Part shown: positions 9 through 10,849 of the stretch, piece after piece | How the letters are laid out: each line of letters starts with the position of its first letter | Position numbering within the stretch: position 1 is the first letter of the stretch | Assembly (NCBI GenBank): GCA_007376405.1 | Contig: VMGD01000002.1 | Location: 8,159-72,158 of the forward strand | Length of the DNA: 64,000 bases | From: Microgenomates group bacterium Gr01-1014_7 | GTDB lineage: Bacteria > Patescibacteriota > Microgenomatia > Daviesbacterales > UBA10151 | Direction of reading: 5' to 3' | The notes under the pieces: generated by a model | Seen by the model: the letters and a program-made list of their open reading frames with translations, nothing else | What the model was told of the DNA's origin: nothing | The model's database searches: none | Program-made: the position numbers and the translations under genes

Positions 9-1196
9 GTGACAGCCCTAATTGGCTCAAAAACCTTTGACAGAACTCCGGAAGGTGACCGGACTTTCTATAATTTTGGGCCACTGACAGTTGCACTAAC
101 TGGTTGTCAAAACTCTCTAGAGATGGAAGAAGTTGTTAGATCAGGAAGAGAAATGGCAGGTAAACTATTTATTCCTGATGAGTTAAACAAATTTGATCAA
201 GATGCTCTGTTTGGTGCTCTAAAGATTGCAGCCACTCTTAGGCCAGGTGAATTTTTTAACTTTAAAGAATTACCAGGAGTTAGGTTACGGATGGCAAAGA
301 AAGGTGTTGCAATTGTCGCTACCATGAATCCTGCTACTGCCAGGTATGAGAGAAAAGTACTTGATCCGGCGTTAGATAGATTATTTTATGATGGCAAAAA
401 GAGAATAGACTACCCGCCAATGACTCCTCAAGACCCGGAGCTTTATGAAATATTCTTGGGTATTTTAATGGATGATAACGGCAGAATTAGAATACCTAGA
501 GAAGATCTGGTACCAGCAAGAATAGAATATAAAGTTTCGGCAGCAGGGTTAATTAAACAGGTAATTGATCCTGAAGTTGCTCATCATGGGGCGCTTTATC
601 GTTTTTCTCTGGCTGCAGCCGAAATCCATAAAAGCTTTAGTCAAAAAGATAGTGTGGCTAAGACTGCAACCGACCCAGGATTTTTAGAAAAGACAGTTTT
701 GGAGATGGAGGTTTTAGTTAACTGGATGGAAGGGTACTCTACAGAAATAGAAGGTGGAGTTTCATTGCCAACTTATATAGGAAAAAAACTTCATGATTTT
801 TATACTAATATAGACAGCCAAAATGATAAAGTTATATTTGAGCGGGTATTTAGGCATTTTGGCTTTGATATCCAAAGTCCAAGAGAAATGGCAAAAGCTC
901 CTTATAGAGCTTTAACTCCTGTTGAAATTGGCTACTTAACTCCCAAGTCACCAAGAGAAGTCAGAAAAGAAGGTGATGAGGTAACTCCTTCATCAAAAAT
1001 CTACATTGACCCTCAGACCGGAGAAGAAATAAACTACCTCCCGGTAGATTTGGAAACAGAAGATGAACCATTACCTCCGGAAACTGTTTTTGAGTGGGAA
1101 GATGGCAGACAATACATGTATCTGGGCCAAAAAGTAGAAGGTGGAGAACCACTATATATACCAATGATGGTAGAATCTGATAAACAAACAACATAA
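9..1196 (+). CDS. AAA+ ATPase (MoxR/AAA_5-like) C-terminal part with a long C-terminal extension; probably 5'-truncated by the window edge
   Basis: The ORF is open to the window start. It has a sensor-2-like motif, VAIVATMNPATARYERKVLDPALDRLF, which resembles MoxR/dynein-type AAA+ (ATxNP...R..LDxAL.DRF). The gene ends 10 nt before the DGR target gene. Confidence 0.45.
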   Translation: MTALIGSKTFDRTPEGDRTFYNFGPLTVALTGCQNSLEMEEVVRSGREMAGKLFIPDELNKFDQDALFGALKIAATLRPGEFFNFKELPGVRLRMAKKGVAIVATMNPATARYERKVLDPALDRLFYDGKKRIDYPPMTPQDPELYEIFLGILMDDNGRIRIPREDLVPARIEYKVSAAGLIKQVIDPEVAHHGALYRFSLAAAEIHKSFSQKDSVAKTATDPGFLEKTVLEMEVLVNWMEGYSTEIEGGVSLPTYIGKKLHDFYTNIDSQNDKVIFERVFRHFGFDIQSPREMAKAPYRALTPVEIGYLTPKSPREVRKEGDEVTPSSKIYIDPQTGEEINYLPVDLETEDEPLPPETVFEWEDGRQYMYLGQKVEGGEPLYIPMMVESDKQTT

Positions 1197-1206
1197 GGAT
1201 AAAATT

Positions 1207-2037
1207 ATGCCAACTGAAACACTACCATTTGATCCCAACCAAGTACCTAAATTACTAAAAGAGGGTAGGATAAAAGTAGTCAGGAGCCCTCAAGTTACGT
1301 CTTCAGAAAGGGCAGTTTCTACTGATAGGATGACAGAGAGGGCAAAAGATATTTTAGGAAAGGATTTTCTGGGTGTAGAGGCCGTCAGAAATATGGAGGC
1401 AAAACTTAAAGGTGTAGGACAAGCAGTCGAATTTGATACTGCCGCTCTCCCGCCAATCCCTTATACGGAAAAAGACCTTGAGCTAGCCCGTCAACATGGA
1501 GAAATGCTTGTTCTGCGGGTGGGATTAATGCGTTTAGGCGGAAGGGAAGTTCCGCTATCACTTATAAATTTTAGGGAACTATTTAGAACTGATCCACTAA
1601 ATAAGTTATCAACGCCTTACTTCGCATTTAGAAGCGATGCTAATGATTGGTATAAAGATCAGCCTTTTGCAACTAAGGGTGGTGAAATTGGCTTATCTTG
1701 GGCTTTGGTAGCAAAAAACATACTACCAGGCTCAAATAGTAAGACTTTGAACCAACAGGCTCGTGTAATGGAGACTTATGCAACCAATTTACAAAGCCAA
1801 GGTGCAAGTAGAACTGAATTTAGAAGAAGAACTGCCACAGAAGCTGCTTATGATACTTTGTTATATTATGTCAACAATGGTGAGCAATTACTTTCAGATA
1901 AATATGACTGGACTCAAACGCGCACGTCCGACGGCCGCCTCGTCCTTGTTGGGTACTTTGACTCGGGCGGTCTGGGCGTGGACTACTGGGATCCGACGCT
2001 TCAGTATCCGAACATCGGTGTGTGTCTTTCCCGGTAG
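1207..2037 (+). CDS. DGR target (variable) protein; the C-terminal ~40 aa are encoded by VR and probably form a CLec/FGE-like variable ligand-binding fold
   Basis: The ORF ends exactly within the VR. Its C-terminus, ...VGYFDSGGLGVDYWDPTLQYPNIGVCLSR, resembles the ...NxGFRCxR ending typical of CLec/FGE-fold DGR targets. The TR-encoded version is Asn-rich (AAC codons). Confidence 0.75.
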   Translation: MPTETLPFDPNQVPKLLKEGRIKVVRSPQVTSSERAVSTDRMTERAKDILGKDFLGVEAVRNMEAKLKGVGQAVEFDTAALPPIPYTEKDLELARQHGEMLVLRVGLMRLGGREVPLSLINFRELFRTDPLNKLSTPYFAFRSDANDWYKDQPFATKGGEIGLSWALVAKNILPGSNSKTLNQQARVMETYATNLQSQGASRTEFRRRTATEAAYDTLLYYVNNGEQLLSDKYDWTQTRTSDGRLVLVGYFDSGGLGVDYWDPTLQYPNIGVCLSR

Positions 2038-2040
2038 TTT
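1917..2040 (+). repeat. DGR variable repeat (VR)
   Basis: VR is about 84% identical to 3777-3900. Every mismatch except the last pair (2033-2034) corresponds to an adenine in the other copy, and the substitutions go to G, C or T. The 3' 27 bp (2006-2032) are identical, consistent with IMH. Confidence 0.8.
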
Positions 2041-2075
2041 TAGGTACTTGAATTCTTGATTCCTTAGTACTTGTA

Positions 2076-2090
2076 CCCCGCGGCGCGGGG
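2076..2090 (+). other. GC-rich hairpin (ccccgcg-g-cgcgggg) immediately downstream of VR; a DGR cruciform/stem-loop candidate
   Basis: It is a perfect 7-bp GC stem with a 1-nt loop, 36 nt after the VR end, in an otherwise AT-rich context. Confidence 0.55.
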
Positions 2091-2109
2091 TCAAGGCAAA
2101 TTTTACAAA

Positions 2110-3162
2110 TTACTCTGTTAACCAATACCAAATCAAATTTTCCAGTTCTTTTCGGAATCTGTAAGCATTGGCATGGGTAAGATAGCCAAAATAGGATTGA
2201 ATGGTTTGGTTTAAACTATCTTCAGTGATTTTGCCGGATTTAAACTCATTAATTTTTGCTTTAATTTTTCTAAGCAGCCTTCTTTTAGTTTTTGTTCTTG
2301 GTAGAATATGATTGGGAAATATAATGTAACCTAAAAAATCTATTCCGCTTCCGAATTTCCCAAAAATAATTTTATCCGGATGAACCTGTAAAGCTAATCT
2401 TTCATTTAAAAATCTTTCAATGTGAGGAATTAAGCTCTCTAAATATAACTTATCTTGAGAAAGGATCACAAAATCATCAGCGTATCGAAGATAATATTTT
2501 ACCTTTAGCTTATGCTTCACAAATTGGTCAAGTTCGTTCATATAAATATTGGAGAAAAATTGGGATGTCAGATTACCAATAGGTATACCCTTTTTGTCTG
2601 TAAGATCAACTGTTCTGTCGGAATAAAAACTATCAATTATTTTCCAAAGAAGGTTAAGAAAATCTTGATCTTTAATTTTCCTGGAAAATATTTCAAAAAG
2701 AATTTTATGGTTTACTGATGGAAAAAACTTCTTTATATCCAGTTTTACTGACCAGCAAGTACGTTTATTATTTCTACTTACCCTCAGGGCCATTTTTTGT
2801 AAGGCGAATATTCCTTTATGTGTACCCTTATTTTTTCGACAAGAATAGGAGTGAGAAATAAAAGTAGGCTCAAAAATTGGCTCAAGCTCATTGCTGACTA
2901 TATGGTGAACTATTCTATCTATAACAGTGGTCTTATGAATTAAGCGTAGCTTTGGATCCCGAACATAAAAACTGCTATATGTACCCGGATGATATGTCTT
3001 CTCCTGAAGAAGCTTACAAAGATTGGCAAAATTTTCCGGGAAATTTTTCATAAAAAGCTTAACATCTTTCTTTTTCTTCTTACCGACTAAAAACTCTCTC
3101 CAACCACGAAAAATATTTTCCTTTGTGGTAAGATTGCTGTAGATATTATGGTAGATTTTCAT
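2110..3162 (-). CDS. DGR reverse transcriptase
   Basis: RT motifs are present: the YADD box (RYADDFVIL) and the DGR-specific motif IGNLTSQ (I/LGxxxSQ). The N-terminus follows the Y..L...ENL pattern. The gene lies between VR and TR. Confidence 0.9.
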   Translation of the reverse strand: MKIYHNIYSNLTTKENIFRGWREFLVGKKKKKDVKLFMKNFPENFANLCKLLQEKTYHPGTYSSFYVRDPKLRLIHKTTVIDRIVHHIVSNELEPIFEPTFISHSYSCRKNKGTHKGIFALQKMALRVSRNNKRTCWSVKLDIKKFFPSVNHKILFEIFSRKIKDQDFLNLLWKIIDSFYSDRTVDLTDKKGIPIGNLTSQFFSNIYMNELDQFVKHKLKVKYYLRYADDFVILSQDKLYLESLIPHIERFLNERLALQVHPDKIIFGKFGSGIDFLGYIIFPNHILPRTKTKRRLLRKIKAKINEFKSGKITEDSLNQTIQSYFGYLTHANAYRFRKELENLIWYWLTE

Positions 3163-3510
3163 TCACCCTGGCAGGATATACCCTTATTTAATAAAACTTA
3201 CGAGCTCTATAAAACTTTCTACGAATACCTATTGTTGTTCCCCCGAAAAAATAGATATACCATTGGACAAAAATGTGAAACAATCTTACTTGAAACATTA
3301 GAAGCGATTATTCTGGCCAGTAACCTCTCTAAACAAGAAAAATTACCGGTTCTAAAAAAGGCCAGCATGAAGTTGGATGTAGTGAGAGTGTTCTTTAAAC
3401 TGGCTAAGGATATAAAAGTTTTAGAAAATAAAAAATACCAAGTACTTGAATCCCAAACTACAGAAATAGGTAAGATGTTAGGTGGGTGGATTAAAGCTTC
3501 TCAAATTTAA
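3148..3510 (+). CDS. Avd-like accessory variability determinant (four-helix-bundle protein, TIGR02436-like)
   Basis: It is a 120-aa basic helical protein with a C-terminal ...EIGKMLGGWIK ending, like four-helix-bundle/Avd family members. It lies directly upstream of TR on the same strand and diverges from the RT with a 15-nt start overlap. Confidence 0.55.
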   Translation: MVDFHSPWQDIPLFNKTYELYKTFYEYLLLFPRKNRYTIGQKCETILLETLEAIILASNLSKQEKLPVLKKASMKLDVVRVFFKLAKDIKVLENKKYQVLESQTTEIGKMLGGWIKASQI

Positions 3511-3776
3511 ATACAGTATTTTAATCTTTAGAATTTTATGATAATCTGTTTATGGAAGGTTAAAAATCTTCCCTTCTTTTGTAGGTCCCAGAATTCTAAT
3601 TAGCACGTCTAATTAGGAGCGCGGCCAAAAAGAAGTAATGAAACTACTTGCTCTTTTCTGGCGCAGATTCTTTAGAGCTTCAGCTCGCAAGCTGTGCTTA
3701 ATTGATACTGCCGAAAAAATATACAGAGAAGATACATTTGATAAATTCTCAGTGATCAGAGGGAAAAGGGCAATGG

Positions 3777-3900
3777 AAAGCGCACGTCCGACGACAACCT
3801 CGTCAATGTTGGGAACTTTGACTCGAACGGACTGAACGTGAACAACTGGAATCCGACGAATCAGAATCCGAACATCGGTGTGTGTCTTTCCCGACAGTTT
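3777..3900 (+). repeat. DGR template repeat (TR)
   Basis: This is the adenine-rich copy (~32 A). Adenines at the VR-mismatch positions are intact here. Only spurious ORFs cover it. Confidence 0.8.
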
Positions 3901-3909
3901 CAACCTAAA

Positions 3910-3947
3910 AAGAAGCTCTCTTGGTTAAGGGAGCTTCTTTATTTTAA
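3910..3947 (+). terminator. Rho-independent terminator-like hairpin after TR
   Basis: The sequence aagaagctc-tcttggttaagg-gagcttctt forms a perfect 9-bp stem and is followed by tttatttt. Confidence 0.55.
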
Positions 3948-4475
3948 AAGTTACTCAAAAAGAATAATATAGACTGCAAAGACAAGAAAATAAAACTCGC
4001 GAAAATTTTTCCAGCTCAAAAGGAATTTAACAAAATTAATGAAGTGAAACGAAGTAAAAAGTGAAAAGCAGCGCTAATTCCCCTTTTTTGTAACTCCGAT
4101 TCAATTATAGTAGCGATCCCGCCGAAGGCGGGAGAGCGAAGCGATACAATGCGTTGATGGAAAATTTAAAGTACCTTTTTCTTAATCTCACTTGCGATGT
4201 TTATATTATTAATATTGTTTCATAATTTATATTCCCCGCTGTGGCGGGGAAACTCTGGCAAAAAGCGAAAGGAATTTGAATTTTTGCTACTTGTTTTTTC
4301 TGCCGGCAGTTTGTAATATTGTAGATGTAGTCAAACTTTCCCATTCGGCTTTTTAATGGGCATCTTGGGCAAATCCGAATGGGTTTGACTACACCAAGGT
4401 GCCCTTTAAAGTGGAGAAATGGTGAAGTTGGAATAAATCCAACTTCACACCTTATCCCACTTTACCTATTAAATT

Positions 4476-6041
4476 ATGGAACAAACTGCCTTTAACAGTA
4501 ATAATTCGCAAAAATTCTTTTTATATGCTCGCAAGTCTACAGATGTAGAAGATAAACAAATGCGGTCTATTCCGGATCAACTGTTAGAACTAAGGGAATA
4601 TGCCAAGCGTGAAGGATTATATATTGTTGAAGAGCTAACAGAGGCTAAAACTGCTAAGGCTCCGGGTAGAGTGGTTTTTAATAGTATGCTTTCTAGAATA
4701 GAGAATGGTGAAGCGGAAGGTATTGTAGCTTGGCATCCGGATAGACTTGCTCGTAACAGTATAGATGGTGGGAAAATTATTTACCTTCTTGACCTTGGGA
4801 AACTTAAAAACTTAAAGTTTCCCCAACATTGGTTTGAAAATACTCCTCAAGGTAAATTTTCCCTTAATATGGCTTTTTGCCAAAGTAAATACTTCGTGGA
4901 CTCGCTTTCAGAAAATACCAAAAGAGGAATCCGCCAAAAAGTTAAAAGGGGTGAAATGCCAGGACTTGCACCAGTAGGTTATTTAAACATAATGACTAAT
5001 AACAGGAAAATTATAGTCATTGATAAAAAGCGTGCTCTTATTATAAGACAAGCTTTTGAAATGTTTGCTACGGCTAAATATCGTATTCAAGATATTTGCA
5101 ACTTTCTGGCTGAAAATGGCATGGCAAAGGCCAGTGGTAAGCTTTGGAAGAGCGATCGGGTAAGTAAGCAGATACTTTCCAATCCTTTCTATTACGGCCA
5201 TTTTAAATATATGGGCGAGATCCACGAAGGGGTTCATCAGCCAATCATTACAAAGAAACTGTGGGACGCAGTCCAAATCGTGTGGAGGAAGCGAAGTCAT
5301 TCCTGGAAAGAGATGAGACCACAAAAACCTTTAACAGGACTTTTTCGTTGTGGTGAGTGTGGTATGATGATTACCGCCGAACTCCAAAAAGGCTACATAT
5401 ATTATCGTTGTACGAAAAAGTCTAAGGTAAGATCCTGTTCTCAGTTATATATTCGGGAAGAAGAGTTAGATCGACAATTATCAGATCAAATAGCCACAGT
5501 TTCTTTGAGGCAGGATTGGGCAGATAAAATGTTGGCTAAGTTATCGATAGAGGAAAAAAATGTAGCCCAATCCTGTGATATGTTTGTTGGAGAAAAGCAA
5601 GCAGAGATTAAATCTATCAATGAAAAACTCCAAAGACTCCTTGATTCTTATTTAGAGCAAGACATCGAGCGTGAGGATTACCTTGTTAAAAAAGCAGATT
5701 TGCTTGCTTTAAAGAAAAAATTAGAGGAACAAATTTTATCTTTCCAACAAACCAAAAATGCTTGGCTCGAACCAATGAAACAATGGATAGTGGAAGCCGC
5801 CGCGGCGGCTAATATCGCAAGAAGTAAAGACTTAAATGCAAAAAAGGTACTTGCTCAAAAAATCTTCGGCTCGAACCCCACACTAAAAGACAGAAAGGTA
5901 TATTGCAACGCTCTAAACATATGGTCCGCCCTACGGGCGGACCCGCCAACTCGGGACTCGGAGCCGACAGCGGGAATTGAACCCGCGACCCCGTTCTTAC
6001 CAAGAACGTGCTCTACCACTGAGCCATGTCGGCAGAAATGA
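4476..6041 (+). CDS. Large serine recombinase (resolvase/invertase-type N-terminal domain, recombinase domain, zinc ribbon and coiled coil)
   Basis: The N-terminus FLYARKSTDVEDKQ carries the catalytic Ser. A zinc-ribbon CGECG...YYRC and a long coiled coil follow. The last ~26 codons run antisense through tRNA-Thr, so the true stop may be functionally irrelevant. Confidence 0.85.
   Translation: MEQTAFNSNNSQKFFLYARKSTDVEDKQMRSIPDQLLELREYAKREGLYIVEELTEAKTAKAPGRVVFNSMLSRIENGEAEGIVAWHPDRLARNSIDGGKIIYLLDLGKLKNLKFPQHWFENTPQGKFSLNMAFCQSKYFVDSLSENTKRGIRQKVKRGEMPGLAPVGYLNIMTNNRKIIVIDKKRALIIRQAFEMFATAKYRIQDICNFLAENGMAKASGKLWKSDRVSKQILSNPFYYGHFKYMGEIHEGVHQPIITKKLWDAVQIVWRKRSHSWKEMRPQKPLTGLFRCGECGMMITAELQKGYIYYRCTKKSKVRSCSQLYIREEELDRQLSDQIATVSLRQDWADKMLAKLSIEEKNVAQSCDMFVGEKQAEIKSINEKLQRLLDSYLEQDIEREDYLVKKADLLALKKKLEEQILSFQQTKNAWLEPMKQWIVEAAAAANIARSKDLNAKKVLAQKIFGSNPTLKDRKVYCNALNIWSALRADPPTRDSEPTAGIEPATPFLPRTCSTTEPCRQK
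5962..6033 (-). tRNA. tRNA-Thr (anticodon GGU)
   Basis: The reverse complement folds as a canonical cloverleaf: acceptor GCCGACA/TGTCGGC, D-arm GCTC-AGTGGTA-GAGC, anticodon loop TTGGTAA, T-arm GCGGG-TTCAATT-CCCGC, discriminator T. No CCA is encoded. Confidence 0.75.
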
Positions 6042-6112
6042 GCCTCCTGGCAGAATCGGACTGCCGTCATATGTTTACAAAACATACGCACTAACCACTG
6101 TGCTAAGGAGGC
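6041..6112 (-). tRNA. tRNA-Thr (anticodon UGU)
   Basis: The reverse complement gives acceptor GCCTCCT/AGGAGGC, D-arm GCAC-AGTGGTTA-GTGC, anticodon stem TATGT/ACATA with loop TTTGTAA, and T-arm GGCAG-TCCGATT-CTGCC. The T-loop is atypical (C at position 55). Confidence 0.65.
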
Positions 6113-6169: not shown

Positions 6170-6406
6170 GTGACTCAATTATCAAACAAGTATCCTTTGG
6201 AAGAAAGAACAGCAAAATTTGGTGAAGATATTATTAAGTTTTGTAGAGTCTTAAAAGTAGATACAATATCCTTACCTCTTATAAGCCAACTTGTAAGGTC
6301 AGCAACTAGTATAGGAGCAAATTATATGGAAGCTAATGCAGCAAGTTCAAGAAATGACCTTGATATGCCAAAAGATTACTTCAACATTAAGAGGGAAATA
6401 GTTTAA
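6170..6406 (+). CDS. Four-helix-bundle protein (23S rRNA IVS protein/TIGR02436-like), apparently C-terminally truncated
   Basis: The motif SIGANYMEANAASSRNDL matches the family signature (S.I..NIAEG..R.S..DF). It is only 78 aa against ~115-125 for the family. Confidence 0.45.
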   Translation: MTQLSNKYPLEERTAKFGEDIIKFCRVLKVDTISLPLISQLVRSATSIGANYMEANAASSRNDLDMPKDYFNIKREIV

Positions 6407-6764
6407 TTACTCAGTAATTGATAACTGAGAACTTATTGAAAATTGAAAAATGTAAACTAAAAATTAAATAAGTACTCCCTACTATAGTCGTTAAGCCAAT
6501 TATTTTCCCCCTAAATTGAGGTGGGTGTCCTGGTCCGATAGAGATACTCTCATCGGACACTTCGAACTCCCTTAAAGTAACAAATATCGAAGAAAAAACT
6601 TTGGCTTTTAAACGTGCAAAGCAGGGATCAGGCAGAGCCTGGGTCCCTTAGGCCATCTACTAAATGTCCTTTAGGATAATTTAACAGTAGCACTAAAATA
6701 AATCTCTTGTCAAGGGGTTAAAACTTGACAAAAGATTATGTGTATGCTAATGTGTATGTGTATG

Positions 6765-7004
6765 TTAAACAGAAGAACAAATTTCCTTTTAAATAAGGAT
6801 GTATTGGATAAGTTGGTTAAACTTTCCCGGACTCGCAATATTTCTATGGCAGAGGTTGTTAGAAGAGCAGTAGAAAAAGAGTATGAGGAGGAAAAAGAGC
6901 TGGAAACAAGAAAGAAAGCAATAGATGCGACCCTAATGGGAAGATTAATGTCTAAAGGTAAAATTGATTACAAAGAGCTGATTAATTATGGCCGCAAATA
7001 TTAA
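6765..7004 (+). CDS. vapB: Ribbon-helix-helix (CopG/VapB-like) antitoxin
   Basis: It is a small RHH-like N-terminus. It overlaps the downstream PIN-domain gene by 17 nt. The start was chosen at MLNRRTN after the TGTGTATG microsatellite. Confidence 0.55.
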   Translation, partial: LNRRTNFLLNKDVLDKLVKLSRTRNISMAEVVRRAVEKEYEEEKELETRKKAIDATLMGRLMSKGKIDYKELINYGRKY

Positions 7005-7380
7005 AAAATACATTGTAGATGCTTCTTTTGTTCTTTCCTTTTTACTTCCCGATGAAAATCACCAAGAGGCAGATTTGTTTTTTAATCAATATAAAGCCGG
7101 CATCATTAATTTTTTATCTACACCGTTGTTGCCTTTTGAGGTGGTAAATGGATTAAAGTTAGCAGTTATTAGAAAAAGGATCAGTTCAAAATACGCAAAA
7201 GAACGAATGAAAGAATTTTTTAATTATCAAATCAGACTTGTGGGCACAGATTTTTTTGAAGTTTTTGACTTGGCCCAGAAGAATAATTTAACTGTTTATG
7301 ATGCATGCTATTTATATCTGTCGAGGATTAAAAAGGCCCAGCTTCTAACATCCGATGAAGCTCTCCAAAAATTAATTTAA
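6988..7380 (+). CDS. vapC: PIN-domain toxin VapC
   Basis: The N-terminal YIVDASFVL.. has the PIN acidic residue. The C-terminal LLTSDEAL matches the typical ..T.D pattern. Confidence 0.7.
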   Translation: MAANIKKYIVDASFVLSFLLPDENHQEADLFFNQYKAGIINFLSTPLLPFEVVNGLKLAVIRKRISSKYAKERMKEFFNYQIRLVGTDFFEVFDLAQKNNLTVYDACYLYLSRIKKAQLLTSDEALQKLI

Positions 7381-10178: not shown

Positions 10179-10568
10179 TCAGGGTTTAAATCTTTTAATT
10201 TCTTTAATTTTATCCAAGCCTTTATCAAAAGAATAAATAGCTTCAAGCTTTTCCGATTCGCAATATGCTGCTAAATATGCGTCAATAAAGTCAATATTAA
10301 AATTCCGGTAAAAATATAATGTTCTAATAAATAAACTTTTATTTGAGTAAATAGAATTTAGATTTAAGAGATTGTAAATTTTTTCTATTATGTCTTCCCT
10401 GTTGAATTTATAAAAAGATATTAGAACCCAAACTACCTCGGCAATTATCATATCTGATAGGTATAAATTCTCTTCTGAATTTTCTAAAATTGATTTAGCT
10501 TTCTGAAATTGTTTTACATCATCCTTAAGTAAAAAACGCAGTATTAGATTAGCATCAAGAAGTTTCAT
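10179..10568 (-). CDS. vapC: PIN-domain toxin VapC
   Basis: It begins MKLLDANLIL and has a C-terminal FDKG motif. It overlaps the upstream antitoxin by 4 nt. Confidence 0.7.
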   Translation of the reverse strand: MKLLDANLILRFLLKDDVKQFQKAKSILENSEENLYLSDMIIAEVVWVLISFYKFNREDIIEKIYNLLNLNSIYSNKSLFIRTLYFYRNFNIDFIDAYLAAYCESEKLEAIYSFDKGLDKIKEIKRFKP

Positions 10569-10849
10569 TTAAAATTGGGTCTATATTTTTTAGGTAAGGT
10601 TTTAATATATTCGTCTGCTAACATTTTGCCAACTGCTTCAAAAGCTTTTTTCCTATCCCATTTAATATTAGTTTTTAAAGAGCCGGCTAATTCATTTATC
10701 AGCTGACTATTAGTTTTAATTACCAATTGACCATTTATATCTTCAAAAATAATTTTATCACCTGGCTTAATTCCAAATTTTTCTCTCATTTGGTTGGGAA
10801 TAGTGGCCTGACCTTTAGTAGTAACAGTGGAGCTGTACGTATTAAACAT
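10565..10849 (-). CDS. AbrB/MazE/SpoVT-type antitoxin
   Basis: It has a swapped-hairpin motif, GQATIPNQMREKFGIKPGDKI. It is the first gene of an operon with the PIN gene, and a TTGACA-17-TATAGT promoter lies upstream on the minus strand. Confidence 0.65.
   Translation of the reverse strand: MFNTYSSTVTTKGQATIPNQMREKFGIKPGDKIIFEDINGQLVIKTNSQLINELAGSLKTNIKWDRKKAFEAVGKMLADEYIKTLPKKYRPNFK

Follow-up and report, generated by a model that had tools for sequence, protein, structure and literature searches.

A chromosomal diversity-generating retroelement with two lectin-fold target genes in a Microgenomates bacterium

Genes and repeats at the locus

At the beginning of the window, i.e. the whole stretch of 64,000 nucleotides from Microgenomates group bacterium Gr01-1014_7 that was analysed here, the gene order is target-(RT)-avd-TR: a target gene encoding a variable protein, a reverse transcriptase (RT) gene that is convergent with the target and divergent from avd, the accessory gene avd, and a template repeat (TR). 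The target gene (1207..2037, + strand; 276 aa, TSC88233.1) encodes a protein with a C-type-lectin/FGE-like fold, and its last ~38 codons form an in-frame variable repeat (VR1), as the initial annotation had stated. The protein is a C-type-lectin-fold protein with a C-terminal VR, AAY codons and a variation-tolerant fold. Family searches in Pfam, NCBIfam, PADLOC and PHROGs returned no match for the target, the Pfam FGE-sulfatase model did not match it, and Foldseek yielded no PDB match of significance. Its identity to the solved DGR variable proteins Treponema denticola TvpA, Mtd and TaqVP is only 11-13%.

The 124-nt direct repeat (1917-2040 and 3777-3900) is 84% identical and aligns collinearly, without gaps and with 20 differences, just as initially described. 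In 19 of these 20 positions the second copy carries A, the first copy having G nine times, T six times and C four times. The initial claim that every difference except the last pair is an A in the second copy therefore holds for 19 of 20, with the last pair containing the one non-A difference, C in TR and T in VR; this pair had been placed off by one at 3893-3894 and actually lies at 3894-3895 and 2034-2035. The start of the repeat also had to be revised: the first difference (1919/3779) is the repeat edge, real homology begins at 1920/3780, and the core holds 17 differences (1934-2005). VR1 hence extends over 1920..2040 (+ strand), with A-templated mutable sites at 1924-2014 and observed substitutions relative to TR at 1934-2005. 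TR (3780..3900, + strand) ends IMH*-like in ...CCCGACAGTTT and contains 30 adenines in its core 3780-3893, and 35 over 3777-3900 instead of the ~32 counted before. All 17 core mismatches between TR and VR1 fall on TR adenines (hypergeometric p = 1.6e-12, 30 A among 114 core positions). Indeed, none of the 84 non-A core positions differs, which bears out the earlier statement on the mutagenized part, and the mismatches are not distributed over the four TR bases. Codon positions 1 or 2 of the target ORF receive 16 of the 17 core mismatches, and TR read in the VR frame contains 11 AAC/AAT codons.

A scan treating A as a wildcard found no second VR on either strand of the window. On the upstream contig DNA, we found VR2 (L002 6267-6386) in a paralogue ~1 kb upstream of the window. 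It differs from TR at 25 positions, 23 of them at TR A; of the two non-A differences, one lies on the edge of the repeat and the other is a T-to-G change at TR 3807. Of the 30 TR core adenines, 27 are changed in VR1 or VR2. The corresponding codons vary among homologues: near-identical target homologues from other samples vary almost only at codons matching TR AAY/GAC codons, and in homologue clusters of at least 90% identity variation concentrates at such codons, within residues 242-270. In an independent ENA re-assembly with k=139, which exceeds any TR/VR identity run, one contig runs up to 1923 and another begins at 2013, adjoining the A-templated sites 1924 and 2012.

The RT (2110..3162, 350 aa; Pfam RVT_1 1e-27) carries IPIGNLTSQ (motif 4) and YADD (motif 5). 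Both motifs had been recognized initially, and the strand has to be corrected to minus. Motif 4 of DGR RTs reads [I/L]GxxxSQ, as opposed to QGxxxSP in group II and retron RTs, and is accompanied by Y[A/M]DD. [quoted passage not shown] We assigned it to the DGR clade by best match and motif, in agreement with the DGR-type RT expected earlier.

Next to it lies avd (3148..3510, + strand; 120 aa as ORF), which encodes a four-helix-bundle protein and whose first 15 nt overlap the start of the RT gene, read from the other strand. It scores 85.4 bits with NCBIfam DivGenRetAVD (cut-off 80) and 68.4 with Pfam bAvd (cut-off 40), and it matches phrog_3206, 'Avd protein of DGR'. This gene is divergent and was absent from the initial annotation. 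Most, but not all, DGRs have an accessory gene, either Avd or HRDC/MSL/CH1.

The TR RNA module and elements downstream of the variable repeats

TR is embedded in a module with conserved flanks. Alignments of 3 and 19 loci show a conserved 5' leader of the TR RNA (3541..3779, + strand), preceded by a promoter-like match at 3506-3534 (consensus match only) and containing the conserved motif GAAACTACTTG at 3640-3650. A long-range helix between 3650-3659 and 3760-3771 closes the leader just 5' of TR, and RNAalifold shows compensatory changes in 6 of its 10 pairs. On the other side, 9 nt past TR, a stem-loop (3909..3940, + strand) with a 14-bp stem and a GGUU tetraloop is followed by UAUUUU (z -3.4 to -3.6). 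It may bind Avd, serve as an intrinsic terminator of the TR RNA, or both; as a terminator it is a consensus match only. The TRs of the related loci L007 and L008 have equivalent downstream hairpins of 15-17 bp with a different sequence, and stem-loops downstream of TR were reported in 207 of 278 Avd-type DGRs (Handa et al., bioRxiv 10.1101/2023.10.23.563531). An Rfam scan returned two tRNAs only, and the TR region matched no known RNA family.

At the 3' end of the repeats, a three-way comparison of TR, VR1 and VR2 defines an IMH-like boundary (2015..2040, + strand), composed of the A-free block TCGGTGTGTGTCTTTCCCG (2015-2033), GT (2034-2035) and AGTTT, with the stop codon TAG of the target at 2035-2037. 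The 27-bp IMH block proposed initially is too long: the run shared by TR and VR1 covers 2006-2033 (28 nt), but VR2 is substituted at TR 3866, 3871 and 3874, and the truly invariant block across all three repeats is the A-free TCGGTGTGTGTCTTTCCCG (3875-3893 in TR). Directly after this GC-rich block, VR1 and VR2 have GT where TR has AC.

Further elements follow the VRs. Directly 3' of VR1 we observed an array of 8-nt units (2044..2074, + strand), four CTTG/CTTA units reading GTACTTGA ATTCTTGA TTCCTTAG TACTTGTA. The array is also present 3' of VR2 and of the VRs in related DGRs, and it is absent 3' of TRs. Downstream of 29 VRs, YTTG motifs occur at a mean of 3.97 per 60 nt, compared with 0.70 downstream of 387 other ORFs (Mann-Whitney p 6e-20). 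The antisense strand shows 0.17 and the sequence after TRs ~0.9; the spacing peaks at 8 nt. We found no description of an 8-nt-periodic YTTG array in the literature. The array is followed by a GC-rich hairpin/cruciform candidate (2075..2091, + strand; ACCCCGC-GGC-GCGGGGT), ~35 nt past VR1, which is kept after VR2 with the loop GGA and has no counterpart after TR. In L007 and L008, the TR/VR alignments continue through the 3' end with differences at A sites only; thus, TR and VR of these loci appear distinct only from the array onward.

Related elements and the AAA_5/vWA/SNase neighbourhood

Is this organisation shared by related elements? Among 36 metagenomic loci of the RT clade (41-56% RT identity), 23 contain A-biased TR/VR pairs, as do L007, L008 and the present locus. 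All of these 23 loci except L038 show a B3-like order, which is also found in L007 and L008. The relatives come largely from groundwater-type metagenomes, and those with an organism name are mostly Patescibacteria/CPR. No TR was found near the target homologues in L003-L006 and L009-L011 within the DNA retrieved. In ~25 relatives TR lies on the RT strand, whereas in the present locus it lies on the avd strand, opposite the RT. The TR module is thus flipped, and the avd-TR distance is 270 nt compared to ~50 nt in the relatives.

The two target genes enclose a gene for an AAA_5 (MoxR/dynein-like) ATPase, of which the window holds the C-terminal 395 of 681 aa (9..1196, + strand). The full gene (L002 6530-8575) matches AAA_5 with 1.5e-7 and 31.9 bits (cut-off 22), and its L007 counterpart with 72 bits; a MoxR-type AAA+ ATPase is hence present at the AAA_5 level, the MoxR subfamily being putative. 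AAA_5 homologues adjoin the targets in L003, L004, L005 and L011; within the RT clade, 10 or more of the loci surveyed show this adjacency, a count that includes L007, L008 and near-duplicate contigs. In at least 10 of the surveyed loci, spanning 41-100% RT identity, the targets are interspersed with both AAA_5 and vWA genes, near-duplicate contigs again counted. An 872-aa neighbour is without a match in Pfam, and its residues 544-861 are 24% identical (E 2e-17) to a VWA-positive protein of L007. The neighbours further include a Pro-rich membrane-anchored protein, a small membrane protein and a secreted-type SNase. The targets are part of a conserved AAA_5/vWA/SNase cassette, its vWA member at the present locus being putative.

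An invertible 11-kb segment was suggested by L001 and L002 sharing their first 139 nt. We rejected this as evidence of inversion: according to L012, the repeat is at least k=139 long in the assembly concerned, and the common end is therefore a graph branch caused by the repeat. No flanking inverted repeats comparable to this end were found in related loci.

Identity, activity and role of the element

To our knowledge, diversity-generating retroelements (DGRs) are the sole targeted protein hypervariation system in prokaryotes, and CPR bacteria are already known as DGR-rich. We are nearly certain that the locus is a genuine chromosomal DGR of a CPR bacterium, with mutagenic retrohoming on two paralogous small C-type-lectin-fold proteins. 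An A-specific TR/VR pair, a DGR-type RT, Avd, a C-terminal VR in a lectin fold, and an IMH/IMH*-like difference with a GC hairpin are all present, the two VRs diverge from TR in an A-specific manner, and relatives are hypervariable at the same codons. The initial reading as a DGR is therefore upheld; its claim of completeness is correct in that every defining component was located, and needs amending in that the second target with its VR sits just beyond the window.

With the prototype BPP-1 DGR (mtd-avd-TR-brt), the element shares an error-prone RT with I-G-x-L-T-S-Q and Y-x-D-D, for which Brt is the best solved relative, as well as the Avd accessory protein and the adenine-specific mutagenesis of an AAY-rich C-terminal VR in a C-type-lectin fold. 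Both also have an IMH/IMH*-type difference, a GC hairpin that follows the VR exclusively, and a stem-loop just 3' of TR. However, BPP-1 is phage-borne and organised as one operon, whereas the present element is chromosomal in a CPR bacterium, has its RT on the strand opposite avd, TR and the targets, and possesses two target genes, the 276-aa target being a stand-alone protein and not a tail-fibre protein. Furthermore, the GC hairpin lies ~35 nt past the VR instead of 4 nt, and is preceded by the CTTG array, while BPP-1 has no YTTG array after its VR.

Other counterparts are the CPR DGRs, represented by RT clade 2 (Roux et al. 2021, PMC8144416), by the CPR set of Wu et al. 2018 (PMC5758913) and by the architecture B3, 'TR-(avd)-RT', which share the host lineage, an avd divergent from the RT, multi-target loci and, as reported for CPR targets, targets without recognisable Pfam or transmembrane domains. 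The present locus differs from them in the TR module, inverted relative to avd-RT, on the avd strand and 270 nt downstream, and in its targets, which lie beyond the RT 3' end.

How would such an element operate? A structured non-coding RNA of ~400 nt, comprising the leader, TR and the 3' stem-loop, would be transcribed. RT and pentameric Avd would reverse-transcribe TR, with random nucleotides going in opposite the 30 template adenines, and the cDNA would take the place of the homologous 3'-terminal VR, both in ORF 1207-2037 and in the upstream paralogue. Recoding of the 11 AAY and ~7 other A-containing codons could give ~1e17 possible proteins without creating stop codons. Since the IMH-like GT, the 8-nt-periodic CTTG array and the GC hairpin are VR-only cis elements, transfer would run one way, from TR to VR. 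GC skew is positive throughout the window, which makes the + strand targets co-directional with replication; the cDNA would therefore anneal to the lagging-strand template. This co-directional orientation is the one favoured for retrohoming (PMC12875486).

Could the same observations arise otherwise? Ordinary paralogous or duplicated repeats, diverged by normal mutation beside an unrelated group II intron, retron or defence RT, would find some support in the sub-threshold RT matches to group II intron, retron and DRT models. These scores are, however, far under the curated cut-offs (group II 157 vs 300 bits), the best solved relative is a DGR RT, and a bona fide Avd gene is adjacent. Moreover, the first repeat copy terminates a lectin-fold ORF while the second is non-coding, and the confinement of mismatches to the adenines of one copy refutes this explanation, to which we assign a practically negligible probability. 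A different question is whether the DGR still works. Homing could have been lost after a rearrangement in which the TR module was inverted and the targets ended up beyond the RT; in this scenario the A-specific differences would predate the rearrangement. The atypical TR orientation and the lengthened avd-TR distance would fit such a fossil, as would the JGI metagenomes, where a search for VR variants that allowed any base at each TR-A position had 0 matches. We nevertheless consider it improbable: the RT and avd ORFs are intact with every motif present, the TR module is whole, with leader motif, closing helix and 3' hairpin, and on either side of the VR the contigs of the re-assembly stop at A-templated sites. 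In addition, non-A differences are 0/84 in VR1, and one internal and one at the edge in VR2, in a genome of 38% GC, which points to recent homogenisation by homing. We infer that the DGR is probably active at present.

Regarding the variable proteins, synteny leads us to favour ligand or antigen sensing coupled to the AAA_5 ATPase and the putative vWA protein. They could instead be secreted or surface adhesins by which an episymbiotic CPR cell attaches to changing host surfaces. Host interaction has been proposed for CPR DGRs (as cited in PMC10907252), and the Pro-rich membrane-anchored protein, the small membrane protein and the secreted-type SNase nearby would suit this role. Yet neither a signal peptide nor a hydrophobic segment is visible in the 276-aa target, and its interleaving with AAA_5/vWA genes in at least 10 loci resembles that of MoxR-associated DGR targets (PMC7159879, PMC10907252), so that we regard the adhesin role as possible but doubtful. 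The sensing role recalls the MoxR-vWA (VMAP) ternary conflict systems (Kaur et al. 2020, PMC7159879; Dore et al. 2024, PMC10907252), in which DGR-diversified FGS/CLec domains of lectin fold are encoded beside vWA proteins and, as here, next to an AAA_5/MoxR-like ATPase; for the 872-aa neighbour of the present targets, the putative vWA assignment is based on a Pfam-positive homologue with 24% identity. Targets with unknown N-terminal extensions are described as lying directly downstream of MoxR ATPases (Dore et al. 2024, PMC10907252). In contrast to these systems, the lectin domain here stands alone as a small protein, with no fusion to vWA or NTPase, the host is a CPR and not a multicellular bacterium, and a conserved SNase gene accompanies the cassette. 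Because Pfam and PADLOC detected no VMAP, peptidase, TIR, EAD or adapter domain in the neighbours, we do not class the locus as a VMAP conflict system and take the resemblance as an analogy only.

Beyond this, we speculate, with considerable reservation, that in this CPR DGR clade the VR is told from TR by an undescribed array in which 3-8 YTTG(R) motifs recur every 8 nt, on the sense strand directly 3' of every VR, and that the classical IMH difference or cruciform alone does not direct homing. Linked to this, the stand-alone lectin proteins might be exchangeable sensors for the conserved AAA_5/vWA/SNase cassette, a CPR version of the MoxR-vWA conflict systems. The array could recruit the RT-Avd-RNA particle, e.g. 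with each Avd protomer occupying one motif of the single-stranded nucleic acid; alternatively, it could stall replication and let the cDNA anneal to the lagging-strand template.

In summary, the locus adds one CPR DGR to a well-known class, with a few unusual local features. Another CPR DGR by itself contributes little, and its value is that of a clean, fully parsed example in which RT and Avd are intact, two VRs are present, the TR RNA module is defined and the fold of the targets is known. The TR RNA module appears to be an autonomous unit that is still seemingly functional though inverted relative to RT and avd. One cis element, the YTTG array, may be new. Target recognition where IMH equals IMH* was noted as an open problem (Wu et al. 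2018, PMC5758913), and the VR-specific periodic array may explain recognition in such cases. Finally, the conserved linkage of variable lectins to AAA_5, vWA and nuclease genes in CPR bacteria points to a sensor or defence role in these minimal-genome organisms.

The template repeat, its two variable repeats and the reverse transcriptase

A direct repeat of 124 nt (1917-2040 and 3777-3900) aligns without gaps at 84% identity, and a base-by-base table of its 20 differences assigns 19 to an A of the second copy, the template repeat (TR), that is G, T or C in the first, the variable repeat VR1, while the last is C versus T. The true homology starts at 1920 and 3780, and the difference at 1919/3779 lies on the border of the repeat. 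The core (3780-3893) counts 114 nt, of which 30 are A; every one of its 17 differences hits a TR adenine, and the 84 non-A positions have none (hypergeometric probability of all 17 falling on A, 1.6e-12), which bears out the adenine-specific divergence claimed in the initial annotation, although the whole TR copy holds 35 adenines rather than the estimated 32 or so. Read in the VR frame, the TR is KRTSDDNLVNVGNFDSNGLNVNNWNPTNQNPNIGVCLSRQ, with 11 AAC/AAT codons, and 16 of the 17 core differences affect codon positions 1 or 2. As was also proposed, the first copy is the in-frame 3' end of ORF 1207-2037, the 276-aa target gene that ends in VR1 (TSC88233.1; the source is a MAG of the candidate phyla radiation, Microgenomates group bacterium Gr01-1014_7).

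Besides VR1 no further VR was found inside the window. The ENA contig L002 comes from this organism too; its position 7380 corresponds to window position 1 at 100% identity, and it carries a target paralogue, G01um10147_136 (L002 5601-6383), two genes upstream of TSC88233.1 and 42% identical to it. The first 25 codons of the two genes are nearly the same DNA (95% over 87 nt). The paralogue ends in a second variable repeat, VR2 (L002 6267-6386), and gene and repeat lie some 1.0-1.8 kb upstream of the start of the window. VR2 differs from the TR at 25 positions, 23 of them at A, one at the repeat edge and one a T to G change; VR1 and VR2 together change 27 of the 30 core TR adenines.

Because VR2 is substituted at TR positions 3866, 3871 and 3874, the 27-bp, adenine-containing block first proposed as the IMH, the 3' boundary of the VR, is too long, and the invariant block is reduced to the A-free TCGGTGTGTGTCTTTCCCG (3875-3893). 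It is followed by GT in both VRs versus AC in the TR, at 2034-2035 and 3894-3895 (not 3893-3894), a plausible IMH/IMH* distinction. Some 50 conserved nt then follow both VRs without a counterpart after the TR, and at their end stands a GC hairpin (ACCCCGC-GGC/GGA-GCGGGGT, 2075-2091 in the window).

The reverse transcriptase (RT) gene between the repeats does encode the expected IGNLTSQ and YADD motifs, but on the minus strand (ORF 2110-3162; 350 aa, RVT_1). Among solved structures the best match is 8ub7_A (7e-44), which equals brt of Bordetella phage BPP-1 at 100% identity; the alignment with the RT pairs IPIGNLTSQ with IPIGSLTSQ and YADD with YMDD. The phrog_1423 match reaches 6e-119, and the scores against group II intron, retron and DRT models all remain far under the curated cut-offs. 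Overlooked earlier was the accessory gene avd (ORF 3148-3510, plus strand; NCBIfam DivGenRetAVD, 85.4 against a cut-off of 80 bits, with Pfam bAvd also passed), which diverges from the RT gene with a 15-nt overlap of their 5' ends. With these minor corrections, the interpretation as a diversity-generating retroelement (DGR) is supported.

A periodic YTTG array downstream of the variable repeats

RTs 41-56% identical to that of the window are encoded by L007 (Yanofskybacteria) and L008 (Patescibacteria), both GTDB genomes, and by 36 metagenomic loci. A scripted survey that required at least 80% A-specific mismatches recovered TR/VR pairs in 23 of the 36 as well as in L007 and L008, with one TR serving two or three VRs at several loci. 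The 60-70 nt directly 3' of every VR in this clade hold an array of YTTG motifs, mostly CTTG then G or A, with a spacing peak at 8 nt. In the window it reads GTACTTGA ATTCTTGA TTCCTTAG TACTTGTA (2044-2074), and sense-strand YTTG(R) arrays of 3-8 motifs follow the VRs of the window and of 27 related loci (e.g. 5169-5230 in L007 and 5026-5090 in the metagenomic locus L016).

Across 29 VRs the sense strand averages 3.97 YTTG per 60 nt, and the antisense (CAAR) of the same flanks 0.17; the 3' flanks of 387 other ORFs from the same loci average 0.70 per 60 nt (Mann-Whitney p 6e-20 for VR flanks versus other ORF flanks). Collapsing similar VR flanks to 22 groups leaves the mean at 3.9. After TRs the frequency is about 0.9 per 70 nt. 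The array, with 5-7 motifs, is also present after the target homologues at L003, L004 and L009, and is absent after those at L005 and L006. The VR of BPP-1, unlike those of this clade, lacks it (0 per 70 nt).

In L007 and L008 the TR/VR alignments continue through the 3' end with A-site differences only, and TR and VR appear, from the aligned sequences, to diverge only from the array start. In such a situation recognition "would have to extend downstream" (Wu et al. 2018, PMC5758913). The YTTG array, of which no prior description was found in the DGR papers accessible here, may serve this recognition.

An inverted TR module within a conserved cassette

The usual order, seen in about 25 relatives, is target(s), TR, (avd), RT. 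Their TR shares its strand with the RT and stands about 50 nt past the 3' end of avd; Wu et al. 2018 (PMC5758913) class the TR-(avd)-RT order as architecture B3. The window is an exception. Here TR and avd share a strand, the TR following 270 nt downstream, and the targets are found past the 3' end of the RT gene. Compared with L007 (3784-4256, minus strand) and the metagenomic loci, the entire TR module of leader, TR and 3' hairpin (3511-3948) is inverted onto the avd strand. Another layout variant is seen in the metagenomic locus L038.

Despite the flip, the module is kept whole. It includes a conserved leader motif, GAAACTAC(T/G)TG (3640-3650), a long-range helix that closes just 5' of the TR, with compensatory changes in 6 of 10 pairs, and, 9-18 nt past the TR, a strong stem-loop of 14-17 bp whose sequence is unlike between loci. 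In BPP-1 a stem-loop just downstream of the TR is the Avd-binding element, and of 278 Avd-type DGRs, 207 are predicted to have such a stem-loop (Handa et al., bioRxiv 10.1101/2023.10.23.563531). Because UAUUUU comes directly 3' of it, the window stem-loop may also act as a terminator of the RNA. A promoter-like match at 3506-3534 is a consensus match only. We infer that the TR RNA would be transcribed on its own, as a unit of about 400 nt.

The DGR targets stand in a conserved cassette (window 9-1196 plus L002 945-8575). In order, its genes encode a Pro-rich membrane protein of 398 aa, a second membrane protein of 72 aa, an SNase nuclease and an 872-aa protein with C-terminal homology to a Pfam-positive vWA protein; then come the target with VR2, a 681-aa AAA_5 ATPase (C-terminal part at window 9-1196) and the target with VR1, followed by RT, avd and TR. 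Its counterpart in L007 (211-10684) has the same gene set in another order; there, three targets are interspersed with AAA_5 and VWA genes. Two to three lectin-fold targets stand among the cassette genes, and gene order varies between lineages. AAA_5 and/or vWA neighbours occur at no fewer than 10 surveyed loci, near-duplicate contigs counted, down to 41% RT identity.

Lectin targets beside AAA_5 and vWA-like genes parallel the MoxR-vWA systems with DGR-diversified lectin domains (Kaur et al. 2020, PMC7159879; Dore et al. 2024, PMC10907252), and in CPR bacteria the target is often a CLec domain fused with an AAA ATPase (Dore et al. 2024, PMC10907252). Since no VMAP or effector domain was found in the window cassette, we regard this resemblance as an analogy, not as membership.

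Signs of activity and chromosomal setting

At non-A positions TR and VR1 match perfectly, and VR2 shows a single internal difference, which, in a genome of 38% GC, argues for recent homing. The independent re-assembly ENA ERZ27284378 (k=139) has one contig that ends at 1923 and another that begins at 2013, and the adjacent bases, 1924 and 2012, are both A-templated sites. Such breaks could stem from collapse of the repeats or from micro-diversity at VR1; because no TR/VR identity run comes near 139 nt, micro-diversity is the likely cause. Within clusters of target homologues at 90% identity or more, residues 1-237 are nearly identical, and 11-19 positions differ in the last 38 or so residues, at columns that correspond to AAY/GAC codons of the TR (window residues 242, 244, 247, 250, 252, 254, 257, 259, 260, 262, 265, 267 and 269); one four-member cluster is an exception without variation. 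A pattern search of JGI metagenomes for VR variants, with N at all A sites, gave no match. Two homologues of the P0002 cluster (at least 90% identity), P0073 and P0075, have altered C-termini, one by a frameshift inside the VR and one by stop read-through (…GVCLSREFFYLAT), which may be homing by-products or assembly errors in a hypervariable region.

The DGR is chromosomal, because the remaining window sequence is ordinary cellular DNA, with genes for peptide deformylase, formyltransferase and MreB as well as toxin-antitoxin pairs. Since GC skew is positive in every 4-kb bin (1-64000) and the plus strand carries most long ORFs, the window lies on one replichore with plus as the leading strand and both targets co-directional with replication. 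In reconstituted BPP-1 the same orientation, with the cDNA complementary to the lagging-strand template, favours retrohoming (PMC12875486).

At 0.6 kb from the TR stands the gene of a large serine recombinase (4476-6041, plus; phrog_95 integrase, 1.4e-70), whose ORF in the present call overlaps two tandem tRNA-Thr genes (5960-6033 and 6040-6112, minus). Homologues of 36-45% identity adjoin the DGR in L008 and in the metagenomic loci L018, L020 and L026, which hints that DGR cassettes are mobile or rearranged by serine recombinases. The 100-nt stretch 4070-4169 has an inverted copy about 7.2 kb upstream of the window, and these inverted repeats, at least 139 nt long in the ENA assembly (contigs L002, 1-139, and L012, 1-238), flank the DGR cassette of about 11.3 kb. 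The same assembly has a 215-nt insertion between 4169 and 4170 that holds an inverted 72-nt copy of 5893-5964, the tRNA-Thr 3' flank. Either a structural polymorphism or a difference between the assemblies could explain this, and it is no proof of inversion. Short GC-rich hairpins stand in the AT-rich spacer between TR and recombinase, CCCGCC-GAAG-GCGGG (4117-4135, within the 100-nt inverted repeat) and CCCCGC-TGTG-GCGGGG (4233-4250). Beside the tRNA-Thr genes, a 78-aa ORF (6170-6406, plus) that looks truncated matches the N-terminal half of TIGR02436 (4.7e-9), the four-helix-bundle or 23S rRNA-intervening-sequence protein family, whose wider family includes Avd. Past the recombinase, precomputed Pfam hits on L012 mark toxin-antitoxin-like pairs at 6738-7380 and 10179-10849 (RHH with PIN; MazE/PrlF with PIN) around a Peptidase_M50 gene.

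CPR bacteria are well known to carry DGRs (Roux et al. 2021, PMC8144416; Wu et al. 2018, PMC5758913). What goes beyond routine annotation here is the second VR, the flipped yet intact TR module, the conserved AAA_5/vWA/SNase cassette and, foremost, the VR-specific periodic YTTG array.
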